Shown: in pieces, positions 34,568 through 38,250 of the stretch
Layout of the letters: the number at the start of each line of letters is the position of its first letter
Numbering within the stretch: position 1 is the stretch's first letter
NCBI GenBank assembly: GCA_963733195.1
Contig: CAVTCR010000003.1
Coordinates: 27,600 to 91,599 of the forward strand
DNA length: 64,000 bases
From: an uncultured delta proteobacterium
GTDB taxonomy: Bacteria > Desulfobacterota > Binatia > Bin18
Reading direction: 5' to 3'
Made by a program: the position numbers and the translations under genes
The notes under the pieces: model-generated
What the model was told of the DNA's origin: nothing
Databases searched by the model: none
The model's input: only the letters and a program-made list of their open reading frames with translations

Positions 34568-34915
34568 CTACAGATTGTTGATCCAGTTTTTGAGACTTGC
34601 CATGACACGCGTGAGCCGAGCCGGTTCCAAAGATCCGATTGCGCCTTGCAAGAGAGAACCTTCAACCACCGCCAGACGACAGACTCGGATCACGCTGGGC
34701 ACAACCAGGCCGGTTCCTGCGAAATCCGGGTCGCTCGAGTTCACGAGTTCATCAAGTCCGGGCGTGGCTTGATGCAGGCGGGAAGAGATGGGGCAGATGA
34801 GCCAGTCGTCGAATTTCCCCGGGCACTTGCCAAGCACAAGGACCGGCCTATTCTTGCCTTGAGAAAGATCGCTGTTCGGCATCTTGACGTAGGCGATATG
34901 TCCCGCCGCAGGCAT
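34568..34915 (-). CDS. PemK/MazF family endoribonuclease toxin
   Basis: GKNRPVLVL and CPISS motifs, DFAGTGLVVPSVIR; start overlaps the helicase stop (TGATG). Confidence 0.85.
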   Translation of the reverse strand: MPAAGHIAYVKMPNSDLSQGKNRPVLVLGKCPGKFDDWLICPISSRLHQATPGLDELVNSSDPDFAGTGLVVPSVIRVCRLAVVEGSLLQGAIGSLEPARLTRVMASLKNWINNL

Positions 34916-37900
34916 CAGTAGGGTTCTTTCACAGGAATATTGTCATAGGCTGAAAAGTCCTCATCCTCCATTCCGCGAAATGCAGACTGCAACGCGAACT
35001 GGGACCATGCCTGATCAGTTCCATCTTCGTGGTTGCCGTTGGATACGACCAGCCACGAGGAAAGGATGACTTCACGCGGACTGAGCGTATGGGCAGTCTG
35101 TTGGGCGCGGGTCGGTTGAAATAACAGTGAGGGGATATCTCGCCGGAGAATGCCTAGCACCTTCAGCGGTTCGCTCTCCTTTTTCAACGCTTCGGCGACT
35201 GTTTTGGTAGTGGGTTTGGGGAGCGCGCCGTCAGTCAGAAGTTGAATCACCTGTTGGATGTATGCTTCGTCGTCCTCGGTGAAGCCGTGATAGCGGCGGA
35301 TTTCCTTAGCCTTGAGCCGCTTCAAGATATAGGCGTCGTTCGCGCCGCCTTTATGCCTGGGGATGGCGTCGTCGTTTTCGGGACTGGTGGCGATGGTAAA
35401 AGCGTCCTTGTTTCTGTCGAGCAGAGTATAGAAATCCTGCGGGATTGTCTGCCGCTTCTCTGATGGGTCACCGGGTTTGAGAATTTTGACGGCAGTCAGA
35501 AAATCCAGTTCGGCAGAGTCGGTTGCGCCTTGCTGGGCCAGGTAGAATTTGTCGAGTCGGCCCTGACGGAAGTAGGTCAGCAACGACGGGAACTGTTTGA
35601 CCACGGCGTCCGGCGCAGTGGGGAGCAGTCGGGTGGACCGGGCCTTCTTCGGCAGACGTTTGATGCGGGCAAAAAGCTCGGGGTCCTTGTCGCGGACTTC
35701 CCGGATCTCGGTGAGATACTCCAATTCGCTCTCTTCCTCTTCATCCTCGCCCGTGATGGTCTTCTTGGAGTTCAACTTGGCGAACAAATCGTGTGATTTG
35801 ACTTCTTCGCCCTCGGTCAACAGCCGCGCGTCCGCGCCGAGCATTTCGATGAAGGCATGGATCTTCGCCTCGGCTGCCTCCCTGAGTTTGATGAGGTCGT
35901 TGCTCTCCTCGGTGGGGAAGAAGTTGTAGGTATGGATCGTGTCGAACTTGGTGTCCACGCGGTTCACGCGCCCGACGCGCTGGATGAGACGGGTTGGATT
36001 CCACGGGATGTCGTAATTGATGACGATGTTCGAGCGATGCAGGTTGACGCCTTCGGAGAGGACTTCAGTGCTCACGAGAATGCGGAAATCATCACGCGGG
36101 CGAAAGGCGTTAGCGTCGAAATTCGCAATCACGTCTTTATGGGCCTCTTCGCTGGATTGCCCCGTGAAGAGGATGACCTTGGGCTCGACCTCTTTAGCAA
36201 TCCGGTCGGCAAGATAGGAAGCCGTCTCTTGCGACTCGGTGAAGATAATCAGCTTCCCTTTTTTCAACTTGGGTTGCGAGTTGAGGACTTCACGAAAGGC
36301 CTCCCATTTCGGATCGCGCCCGATCTTCGCCCAGAGTTCCTGAACCTTGCGAAGAATGTTGAAATCGCTCTTGAGGTCGCGAAGGAAATCGGCCGAGAAA
36401 TCTTTTGCGCTCAGCCGCTCGGCCTTGTCCTCTTCCAGTAGGCGTTCAATTGCTTCCTGGTTATCATCCTCAAGCGCTTCGAAGATTTTATTGATGTGCT
36501 TTTTGCTGAGGTAAACATTGCCCTTCTGAAATTCATCGATCACGCGTTCGTAGGAGTGGCTGAACCGGTCGAGGGTCAAGCGGAACGCGTGGAAGCTGCT
36601 TTCGAGGCGTTTGACCATAAGGATCTTCATGAACTTCGCCAGGTTGCGCTGGCCCTGGAGTTCCTGTTCGGCCCTCTTGCCTGTGTAATACGTGAGCGGT
36701 TTGTAACGCGCGTATTTGAATTCGGAAACCAGCAAACGAATTGTTTCCTCGAAGATTTCATTCTCCTGCTTGTTGAACTTGTAGAAGAGGGGTTCGGGGT
36801 CTTTGACCTCGGGAAATTGAAGTCCCTGTTGTCTCATGTCTTCGCCGTAGTACTTCTCGATCTCGGTTCTCATTCGTCGGATCATGAGATATTTGAGAAC
36901 CTTTTCCCGTGTCGCTTTGGCGTTCGCCTGAACGGTCTGGAAATAAAGGTCACGGTCGTTTTGCCTGTCCAAGCCTTTGAGTTTTGCTTCCAGACCTGCA
37001 AAGAATGCTTCGAGGTTGCGCAGGTTTGGAATGGTGCTGGCCTTGCCGTTTTGGAAGAGCTTGACCTGGCTGAGAATATCTCGTGGCATGTTGTTCAGGG
37101 GCGTGGCTGAGACAAGGATCACGCGTTTGCCCCGGCAAATTTGAGCGAGGGCTTCGTAGCTGTGCGTGGTCTCCGTGCGGAAACGCTGCGACTCGTCGAT
37201 GAAGACATTCGTGTACTTCGAGAGGTCGCGCTCCAGGAGATGGTCAAGCTTGCCGATTGACTCAAAGTCCGTTTGCCGGACCTGAAAGTCACTGAATACG
37301 TTGGGCCATGAGCCTCTTTTGTCTCGATCCAGCAAGTGAGGCGGGGCGATGACCAAATGGCGACCGTCGAGCTGCTGCGCCAACAAGGCTGACATATATG
37401 TCTTGCCCAATCCAACGACATCGGAGAGAAATGCTCCACCATACTCATCGAGCACCTTGCGTGCATTGAGAACCGCCTCTTCCTGATATTTCAGCTTTTT
37501 GAAACCAATCGGGACGTAAATGTCCTCCAGTTCTGACGGGCGGTTGAGTTCATTGCGAAAATACTCGTACAGGAATTTGAGATATAGCTCGTAGGGGGTG
37601 AATTGGGCGTAGGGTGACTTGTTGAGAATGGTATCTTCATAAGGCTTCGAAACATCCACCGCGACGGCCCAGAGTTCGTTGAACTTGCTGATGGCGAAGT
37701 CGTAATCAGAGCGGTTCTTAAGCTCGACATTGAACTCTAGATTGTCTTGAAGCCCTGCCTGGGTCAGGTTGCTCGAGCCGGTAATCACGCGTCCTTTGTC
37801 CCTGTCGCCCTCAGCGAACGTCATGATGTAAACTTTCGCGTGGAGATTTTCCGAGGGATAGGCTTTAATCTCGAGTTTTCCTGAGCGAATCCACTCGACG

Positions 37901-38250
37901 AATTTGTGAACGCCCATCTCAATCTCCGCGCTGTCGGCGGATTTTTCGAGTTCGCTCAGCACATCTTTGGAAACCCGCTCCTTTGCCGACGCGTGGGACT
38001 TGAGAGTCAACTCGCCTTGTTCTTTGGCTTTCTGGAGGAGTTCGTAAGCCGTGCGGTCTGTCTGGAGGCCGACCAAAATCCGGATCTTCTCAACTTTCTC
38101 TAGCGCCGGATACAGCTTGTAGAAGCCGCTGATGAAGAAGTACCCCACTAGGCAGTCGAAGTAACGCGTATCGTCTCCGAGCAAGACACCGAAGCGATCA
38201 CGCAAGCTTTTGCCGGGTTCATTGGTAAGGAAAGTCAGATCAGATGACAT
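34915..38250 (-). CDS. PLD-nuclease + SNF2-type helicase with C-terminal antitoxin-like extension
   Basis: HAKVYI...GSSNLT (PLD), DVVGLGKT, DESQ, SAT, SEGVNL, QRVGRVNR; tail WSQFALQSAFRGMEDE. Confidence 0.9.
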   Translation of the reverse strand: MSSDLTFLTNEPGKSLRDRFGVLLGDDTRYFDCLVGYFFISGFYKLYPALEKVEKIRILVGLQTDRTAYELLQKAKEQGELTLKSHASAKERVSKDVLSELEKSADSAEIEMGVHKFVEWIRSGKLEIKAYPSENLHAKVYIMTFAEGDRDKGRVITGSSNLTQAGLQDNLEFNVELKNRSDYDFAISKFNELWAVAVDVSKPYEDTILNKSPYAQFTPYELYLKFLYEYFRNELNRPSELEDIYVPIGFKKLKYQEEAVLNARKVLDEYGGAFLSDVVGLGKTYMSALLAQQLDGRHLVIAPPHLLDRDKRGSWPNVFSDFQVRQTDFESIGKLDHLLERDLSKYTNVFIDESQRFRTETTHSYEALAQICRGKRVILVSATPLNNMPRDILSQVKLFQNGKASTIPNLRNLEAFFAGLEAKLKGLDRQNDRDLYFQTVQANAKATREKVLKYLMIRRMRTEIEKYYGEDMRQQGLQFPEVKDPEPLFYKFNKQENEIFEETIRLLVSEFKYARYKPLTYYTGKRAEQELQGQRNLAKFMKILMVKRLESSFHAFRLTLDRFSHSYERVIDEFQKGNVYLSKKHINKIFEALEDDNQEAIERLLEEDKAERLSAKDFSADFLRDLKSDFNILRKVQELWAKIGRDPKWEAFREVLNSQPKLKKGKLIIFTESQETASYLADRIAKEVEPKVILFTGQSSEEAHKDVIANFDANAFRPRDDFRILVSTEVLSEGVNLHRSNIVINYDIPWNPTRLIQRVGRVNRVDTKFDTIHTYNFFPTEESNDLIKLREAAEAKIHAFIEMLGADARLLTEGEEVKSHDLFAKLNSKKTITGEDEEEESELEYLTEIREVRDKDPELFARIKRLPKKARSTRLLPTAPDAVVKQFPSLLTYFRQGRLDKFYLAQQGATDSAELDFLTAVKILKPGDPSEKRQTIPQDFYTLLDRNKDAFTIATSPENDDAIPRHKGGANDAYILKRLKAKEIRRYHGFTEDDEAYIQQVIQLLTDGALPKPTTKTVAEALKKESEPLKVLGILRRDIPSLLFQPTRAQQTAHTLSPREVILSSWLVVSNGNHEDGTDQAWSQFALQSAFRGMEDEDFSAYDNIPVKEPY

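Follow-up and report, generated by a model that had tools for sequence, protein, structure and literature searches.

The window analysed here is a stretch of 64,000 nucleotides from an uncultured delta proteobacterium (GTDB lineage Bacteria; Desulfobacterota; Binatia; Bin18), taken from contig CAVTCR010000003.1 of GenBank assembly GCA_963733195.1 (positions 27,600 to 91,599 of the forward strand). Its reverse strand holds a restriction–modification (R-M)-like operon, in which the gene for a PLD(HKD)+SNF2 helicase-nuclease of 1111 residues (34915..38250) is followed by a gene for a PemK/MazF-family toxin of 115 residues (34568..34915, hereafter mazF) and then by the gene for a Type IIG-like N6-adenine methyltransferase, the 5' part of which spans 32539..34561. 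We put at about 0.8 the probability that the only antitoxin segment of this locus is part of the helicase, and that MazF is made by coupled translation and held inactive on the helicase tail.

The open reading frame (ORF) of the helicase is uninterrupted and its motifs are present. Pfam recognizes PLDc_2 (residues 55-194), SNF2-rel_dom and Helicase_C (649-765), and the best match of the protein in a defence library is the PADLOC model ‘HKD+Snf2’ (8.6e-49). HKD nuclease, SNF2 motor and Helicase_C all lie within one polypeptide, as in HKD+Snf2 R-M-like systems, and an N6-adenine methyltransferase with a specificity domain adjoins the helicase, as expected for such systems; in the window this methyltransferase is broken. 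Two other identities were discarded: the helicase reaches 142 bits with DISARM (defence island system associated with restriction–modification) DrmD, for an equivalog cut-off of 610, and a Type-2 bacteriophage exclusion (BREX)-related system would call for a DUF499 ATPase or a DUF3780 gene, neither of which stands beside the operon. DrmA/B/C-type companion genes were likewise not found among its neighbours.

The three genes are tightly packed, as the sequence-only reading of this DNA had noted. The helicase TGA (34917-34915) and the mazF ATG have base 34915 in common, the mazF TAG ends at 34568, and a spacer of six bases (34562..34567) directly precedes the methyltransferase ATG at 34561. In tail-less relatives of the system, it is the methyltransferase ATG that overlaps the helicase stop.

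Antitoxin-like tail of the helicase

That reading had also proposed that the helicase runs some 40 residues past its family-like end, and 43 extra residues indeed follow ...PREVILSSWLV. A search with residues 800-1111 retrieved 2014 relatives at E<=0.001. Among the best 120, which were inspected, 113 have no tail and stop 4-24 residues past the REVILSS motif (modal length 1071 residues); the tail is carried by seven, namely the window's own helicase, five more in which it is complete and one in which the contig ends within it. Three relatives (P0085, P0112 and P0146) reach 1265-1282 residues yet have the usual family end, so their extra sequence lies elsewhere; P0112 lists HNH (PF01844).

No stop follows SSWLV elsewhere either: the frame is open through the tail in four other assemblies (loci L003, L004, L005 and L024), and contigs from four public sequencing runs of four studies cover helicase end, tail and mazF at approximately 97–98% identity. 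None of the indels listed for these contigs (12 listed of 27) falls within 34568-35085. No public run holds at least half of the sampled words (best share 0.40), and the spanning contigs (X1-X4) come from relatives. Since the same frame is open in other assemblies and in public-run contigs, a sequencing slip behind the tail appears excluded, as far as assemblies can show.

In a dedicated alignment the five tails are 70-98% identical to one another; values of 35-40%, given by the last window of a sliding-identity alignment, were rejected as a MAFFT misalignment of the ends. A linker (residues 1069-1073 and onward in the window, 35032..35046 of the reverse strand), which varies among loci, sits between the last strand of the helicase family and an antitoxin-like module (residues 1074-1111, 34918..35031, same strand) delimited by hhalign, a genome search and a complex model; all tails have the same linker and core. 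Apart from a Met within the conserved motif, the last 56 codons of the helicase contain no in-frame ATG, GTG or TTG, so the tail is produced only as a part of the helicase. Where dS could be measured, the ratio of non-synonymous to synonymous substitution rates (dN/dS) was 0.04-0.17 for mazF and 0.06-0.14 for the tail (dS being saturated in the other pairs), and both are thus under purifying selection.

The resemblance of the tail to DUF2281-type antitoxins, which precede this PemK subfamily and had been named in the sequence-only reading, is borne out by profile comparison. The profile of the five tails matches that of 105 free DUF2281 antitoxins with an hhalign probability of 96.8% and an E-value of 2.1e-10 over 37 columns, positions 19-56 of the 56-residue tail segment being aligned with antitoxin C-terminal columns 51-87. 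A hidden Markov model (HMM) of the 38 C-terminal antitoxin columns, run on the whole 6.9-Mb genome (142,495 ORFs from six frames), matched only a free antitoxin on contig C29 (8.4e-14) and the helicase tail (3.8e-5) at E<0.1, the next match standing at 0.6. An HMM of whole-length free antitoxins places the helicase ORF fourth in the genome (E 6.5e-4), through its tail. In a shuffle control, the real tail scored 32.7 bits and the best of 1832 scored shuffles 11.5.

Taken alone, the tail has no match in Pfam, NCBIfam or PADLOC, and Pfam gives none in the last 56 or 161 residues of the helicase even at E<=10, because the tail is too short and the N-terminal DUF2281 domain is missing. Since Pfam finds no such domain in it, the helicase stands outside the DUF2281 family and carries only the C-terminal, toxin-proximal module of that family, the conserved core of which is recovered in the tail by profile searches and by alignment. 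The tail coding sequence lies directly upstream of the toxin gene and overlaps it, in the window as in L003, L004, L005 and L024. A search of sequences from the Protein Data Bank (PDB) with the antitoxin profile returned nothing at E<=1.

A search with two free antitoxins (those of C29 and L006) yielded 211 small proteins, many with PF10047 (DUF2281). On contig C29 of the same genome (L002, 1498-2060, reverse strand), a free DUF2281 antitoxin of 72 residues, the C-terminus of which resembles the helicase tail, precedes the genome's one other MazF of this subfamily, which is 45% identical to the helicase-linked one; in L006, a MazF 52% identical is preceded by a free 77-residue protein of the DUF2281-antitoxin kind; and on a plasmid of Synechococcus elongatus UTEX 3055, the gene of an annotated DUF2281 domain-containing protein overlaps that of a PemK/MazF family toxin. 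DUF2281 proteins are also listed, in a section of PMC4963859, as antitoxins of PIN toxins in Synechocystis. The earlier statement that there is no separate antitoxin gene therefore holds for the locus, but not for the genome as a whole, in which the C29 pair is present.

Tail and mazF occur together. Among the 34 loci for which DNA was available, both are found in five and neither in the other 29, so that no tail was seen in a helicase lacking mazF, and in all five tail-bearing loci mazF overlaps the helicase stop. The four outside the window (L003, L004, L005 and L024) are independent instances of the order helicase, tail, mazF and methyltransferase, and have no other antitoxin ORF between helicase and mazF. 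Part of this material comes from a scan of metagenome contigs in which the query was the stretch of helicase immediately preceding the tail, so that the tail itself had no influence on retrieval: one of the 30 loci retrieved has the tail (L024), and it alone has mazF; mazF is absent from the 29 others, in 27 of which the helicase end could be read and has no tail. For each of the five database helicases in which the tail is complete, the longest contig has the same size in nucleotides as that of a MazF cluster. Three of the tail-bearing loci outside the window, ordered as tail-bearing helicase, overlapping mazF and methyltransferase, came from a scan of species-representative genomes with MazF, in metagenome-assembled genomes labelled Deltaproteobacteria, Bacteroidota and Nitrospiraceae; the more distant MazF genes in these representative genomes are preceded by free small antitoxins.

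The toxin and its predicted complex

The 115-residue protein matches PemK_toxin (PF02452) with 42.2 bits (cut-off 23.1; E 1e-10; profile positions 3-108 of 109), and its model has a predicted local distance difference test score (pLDDT) of 92.4. Its best fold matches in the PDB are MazF-mt3, Bacillus subtilis MazF, MazF-mt1 and Staphylococcus aureus MazF (template modelling scores 0.72-0.78; 16-21% identity), structures that are named by the fold search alone, as a sequence search of the PDB gave none at E<=0.01. A scan of viral contigs with the MazF alignment found no relative. Over 48 relatives, R23 is invariant and S44/S45 are nearly so; these may correspond to the catalytic Arg of the first loop and Ser/Thr of the third strand in the MazF proteins studied so far.

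Two copies of MazF (48-row alignment) were modelled with residues 12-56 of the 56-residue tail segment (110-row alignment). The interaction prediction score from aligned errors (ipSAE) was 0.88, 0.88 and 0.87, for 0.01 in the best of three controls; the mark used is reached by 58 of 80 solved complexes and by 2 of 110 mismatched pairs. At least 80% of the contacts are common to the runs, and the partner pLDDT is 76-77. In the model, tail positions 23-56 contact residues 19-24, 44-46 and 80-86 of both MazF copies, an interface that corresponds to the groove of the MazF dimer and takes in the invariant Arg23 and the conserved Ser44/45. Folded without MazF, the last 41 residues of the helicase (1071-1111) have a pLDDT below 50, which in a prediction of this kind is the usual behaviour of an antitoxin end that folds upon binding. 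The model thus supports a predicted binding of the tail to MazF. A natural MazF-inhibiting peptide of approximately 40 residues, as the tail is predicted to be, would be of use in structural work.

Cassette mobility and state of the methyltransferase

On a tree of 106 helicases, built with the tail columns left out, the five tail-bearing helicases are scattered: the tree requires five changes, of which well-supported branches force at least four, and the clustering of the tail label does not exceed that of shuffled labels. The window helicase is 89% identical to the tail-less P0054 and, up to approximately residue 1050, closer to tail-less relatives than to any tail-bearing one. Between the window and L003, DNA identity is likewise a mosaic: it is 91-100% from the helicase end through tail and mazF, and 76-78% in the 200 bases with which the methyltransferase gene starts. 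Because the cassette is scattered over the helicase tree, it would move by recombination, and we conclude from these comparisons that one fusion event was probably followed by the transplantation, by recombination, of a tail-mazF cassette of approximately 490 bases, with a sharp 5' junction at REVILSS.

In a clade of approximately 20 helicases (P0065, P0068, P0072, P0116, P0158 and others; L012, 1761-1820), REVILSS is succeeded by a Trp and then by 6-24 residues of unrelated sequence, which in some cases start like the cassette linker. Such ‘SSW...’ ends, one DNA locus of which (L012) was inspected, may be remnants of cassette loss or an ancestral extension that received the antitoxin.

The junction between helicase and methyltransferase holds other cargo in seven of the 29 tail-less loci: IS200-type Y1 transposases in L016 and L018, NYN-domain proteins with no visible partner in L028, L030 and L032, a pair of MNT (nucleotidyltransferase) and HepT in L036, and a pair of RHH and PIN in L022. 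This junction is an insertion hot spot, and it is plausible that complete toxin-antitoxin pairs lodged there were precursors of the fused form.

The methyltransferase gene of the window is a pseudogene, with at least two frameshifts and an insertion sequence. Two of its pieces match the PADLOC Type IIG REase-MTase model PDLC03596 (1.2e-64 and 7e-75). When the intact protein of L005 is used as a tblastn query, the match shifts frame near 33880-33900 and again near 33200-33260 within the 5' part; the homology then ends at 32539 and restarts at 31080, the 1458 bases between being an insertion sequence (31081..32538, forward strand) with a DDE_5-type transposase ORF at 31138..32523 (PF13546, 1e-29). 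The 3' part (29851..31080, reverse strand) encodes an Eco57I methylase domain (PF07669, 1e-28) and a TaqI_C specificity domain (PF12950, 3.7e-15). The window and L004 have their frameshifts within approximately 30 bases of the same place; the contig from run X1 has the window's state at 33878, and the relatives in X3 and X4 have one base fewer there.

Among other cassette loci, the methyltransferase has a nonsense codon at position 143 in L003 and a frameshift in L004, and it is intact in L005, where it is open over 1028 residues. Broken methyltransferases are thus found in three of the four assessable cassette loci (the window, L003 and L004) versus four of 23 tail-less loci, a difference with a hand-computed one-sided p of approximately 0.04 from small and related samples. 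Tail and mazF remain intact where the methyltransferase is broken, and the helicase ORF is open in all four assessable cassette loci and in 15 of the 17 assessable tail-less ones. Since the methyltransferase is broken, there is no whole R-M complex in the window, and broken methyltransferases in general suggest that the cassette persists without working restriction. Two near-identical tail-less loci (L021 and L023) have a helicase open for 777 codons only and methyltransferases of 698 and 907 codons; there, the whole system is decaying.

Around the operon lie glutathione transferase, GFA, polysaccharide deacetylase and NYN genes. As the flanking genes on both sides are housekeeping genes, the unit comes down to a two-gene helicase/methyltransferase system plus a small toxin gene. 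The NYN-domain protein (195 residues; 40720-41307, reverse strand; PF01936, 1.7e-13) is encoded 2.5 kb upstream of the helicase, with the polysaccharide deacetylase gene between them; NYN proteins also occupy the operon junction in three related loci. A scan of 34300-38700 gave four promoter-like and five terminator-like sites for 2.0 and 5.3 expected, and is uninformative.

Proposed mechanism, alternatives and known systems

The following mechanism would account for this arrangement. The last approximately 38 residues of the helicase would come from a type II antitoxin of the DUF2281 type, of which they would be the C-terminal segment that binds the toxin; this segment would have lost its own N-terminal domain and been joined, in frame, to the end of a PLD+SNF2 helicase of the restriction type. 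mazF would be translationally coupled to the helicase: as its start and the helicase stop have a common base, MazF would be made only behind a ribosome finishing a full-length, tail-bearing helicase. The tail, disordered alone, would occupy the dimer-interface groove over Arg23 and Ser44-46 and silence the ribonuclease (RNase), the helicase carrying MazF as an inactive passenger whose activity would hinge on the continued supply of intact helicase. If this supply were to stop, the RNase would be released and the cell arrested, candidate triggers being phage shut-off, proteolysis or sequestering of the helicase, and loss or truncation of its gene.

The proposal that the defence helicase is itself the antitoxin, made in the sequence-only reading, is well supported by four independent kinds of computation. 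What computation shows is the homology of the tail, its strict co-occurrence with mazF, purifying selection, the binding model and the mobility of the cassette. From these we infer neutralization, release and a benefit, which could be an abortive-infection backup, a stabilization of the helicase gene, or both.

Several observations weigh in the other direction. Because tail and mazF adjoin each other, their joint occurrence is in part a matter of simple linkage, and since the tails all have the same linker and motif, they would derive from one fusion event. A longest contig of 5195 nucleotides is given for the tail-less helicase cluster P0058 and also for the MazF cluster P0019, a pair that may be a counter-example or a coincidence. 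The free antitoxin of C29 might neutralize the helicase-linked MazF in trans, cross-neutralization between the two systems being possible given that their toxins are 45% identical. As MazE–MazF complexes, antitoxin fragments included, have already been solved, the success of the complex model may partly be memory of the fold, and the calibration was built on single-chain pairs rather than on a dimer with a peptide; binding, neutralization and toxicity are all predictions. Finally, because the methyltransferase is broken, a role that requires working R-M cannot operate in the window.

A stronger form of the fused-antitoxin mechanism, which we regard as rather unlikely, is a dead-man's switch on the reading frame itself, in which a premature stop, a frameshift, a clipping of the protein or a phage-imposed halt of synthesis would each leave MazF unopposed. 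If it were true, a mobile cassette of 490 bases would protect the helicase gene from inactivating mutations, loss of the helicase during infection would lead to abortive infection, and recombination could carry the cassette into any homologous operon.

As to what the fused antitoxin is for, the data do not separate an abortive-infection backup from addiction, and addiction fits equally well. In the first case, which the sequence-only reading had proposed, the arrangement would guard the restriction complex: phage attack on it, through an anti-restriction protein or a phage-driven degradation of the helicase, would pull the tail off MazF, and the RNase would abort the infection, as with PrrC/EcoprrI. 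We hold this tentatively, as a possibility that falls short of even odds. An RNase gene within an R-M-like operon, tied to its motor-nuclease subunit, is what such a function would look like, and RNase-type cargo occupies the same junction in five of the 29 tail-less loci (the NYN, MNT+HepT and RHH+PIN cases given above). HEPN, PIN and Schlafen RNases of BREX-related loci are called ‘backup suicidal effectors’ in parts of PMC12839542, a pattern that, together with the cargo at the junction, argues for a link to defence; passages of PMC12707154 name PrrC and PARIS (phage anti-restriction-induced system) as guardians of R-M. However, no trigger is known, the junction also takes IS200-type transposases and so may be a permissive insertion site, and tail and mazF are intact in the three cassette loci with an inactivated methyltransferase, where a dead system leaves nothing to guard.

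In the second case the cassette would be a selfish element with no part of its own in phage defence, a minimal toxin-antitoxin module whose antitoxin has been hitched to a host gene. It would spread by recombination among homologous operons and persist since loss or truncation of the helicase kills the cell, the whole 3.3-kb helicase reading frame being policed as a side effect. To this the scatter of the five tail-bearing helicases over the tree, the closeness of the window helicase to P0054 and other tail-less relatives and the mosaic identity with L003 all lend weight, as do helicase ORFs open in every assessable cassette locus when three of the four methyltransferases are broken. Yet the helicase is open in most tail-less loci too, so that its intactness is not special to cassette loci, and the excess of broken methyltransferases reaches only the p-value given above, from small and related samples. 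Addiction is accordingly an interpretation that we would entertain without calling it probable; besides, addiction and defence are not mutually exclusive.

That MazF should instead be a working subunit of the system, a MazF-fold nuclease or nucleic-acid binder that the tail tethers and that acts during restriction, is improbable. The parallel would be GajC: type II Gabija, as described in part of PMC13069673, joins a UvrD-type helicase to a MazF-like protein required for defence, and our model does put MazF on the flexible end of the helicase. But the homologues of the tail are the inhibitory ends of genuine antitoxins, the tail covers the Arg23/Ser44-46 face in the model, the 113 tail-less helicases among the 120 close relatives do without MazF, and MazF is here an ordinary single-domain PemK, unlike the split domain of GajC (same source, in part). 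Still less credit is due to the view that the likeness is spurious and the real antitoxin lies elsewhere, as the free DUF2281 protein of C29 or an unseen small RNA, because, even though the genome has a free antitoxin of the same family and the tail is short, the match is significant both genome-wide and in hhalign (E 3.8e-5 and 2.1e-10), four further assemblies and contigs from four public runs keep the frame, tail and mazF co-occur strictly with no other antitoxin ORF between helicase and mazF in L003, L004, L005 and L024, and an Rfam scan of 29500-39500 brought no family to threshold.

Several known systems resemble parts of this arrangement. Among them are the free DUF2281 and PemK/MazF pairs, whose toxins belong to the same subfamily (45-52% identical), whose antitoxins have the same C-terminal module with the same conserved core, and in which the antitoxin coding sequence also ends at the toxin start or overlaps it. 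They differ in that their N-terminal DUF2281 domain is here replaced by a 1068-residue helicase-nuclease. Gone, too, is any autoregulation that the domain provided, and expression is now that of the helicase. CapRel and EzeT reportedly have a cis-acting antitoxin domain fused to their own toxin. In them, toxin and antitoxin functions are likewise linked by gene fusion with no free antitoxin protein, whereas here the antitoxin segment is fused to a third, enzymatic protein and the toxin is separate.

The ietHAS and DarHTG systems, which are toxin-antitoxin defence systems with acquired helicases, and type II Gabija with its GajC also have a helicase that works with a toxin-type effector, according to parts of PMC13069673. 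The helicase of ietHAS is DrmD-like and of the SNF2 family; its mutation rendered the system toxic, a result that the authors read as antitoxin-like regulation (same source, in part). In these three systems, however, the helicase is a separate third gene without antitoxin homology and a dedicated antitoxin is retained, whereas here the helicase carries the locus's only antitoxin segment. PsyrTA, considered as a precedent for a helicase antitoxin, was dropped, as a table in part of PMC8790059 lists its RecQ helicase under toxin. Type-2 BREX-related systems combine an N-terminal HKD nuclease with a Swi2/Snf2 motor beside an N6-methyltransferase, and RNase cargo is described inside BREX and BREX-related loci (both in parts of PMC12839542). 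No antitoxin fusion is described there, and MazF/PemK has no occurrence in the main text of that source; its Supplementary Data S4 might list MazF-type cargo. More generally, our literature searches, which covered main texts, brought up no account of a restriction helicase with a fused antitoxin segment.

In the present operon, the wiring between toxin and restriction system is legible from sequence, as an antitoxin peptide fused to the motor-nuclease subunit, and the arrangement is found in several phyla. It offers a testable model for the RNase backing of a first-line DNA-cutting defence, as well as for a minimal toxin-antitoxin element that parasitizes or stabilizes a large host gene and moves as a cassette between operons. 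Toxin-antitoxin modules and restriction systems are known to lie side by side, but a physical wiring between them is known for very few, PrrC being the classic case. With PrrC/EcoprrI (Type IC), this operon has in common an RNase gene placed in an R-M locus and a logic of backup when restriction is disabled, and the restriction proteins keep PrrC latent, as the tail is proposed to do for MazF here (PMC12707154, in the part dealing with PrrC). There are differences too: PrrC is unrelated to MazF, involves no peptide of the toxin-antitoxin type and has a known release by a phage factor, whereas the inhibitor here is a recognizable antitoxin segment, covalently fused to the motor subunit of the restriction system.

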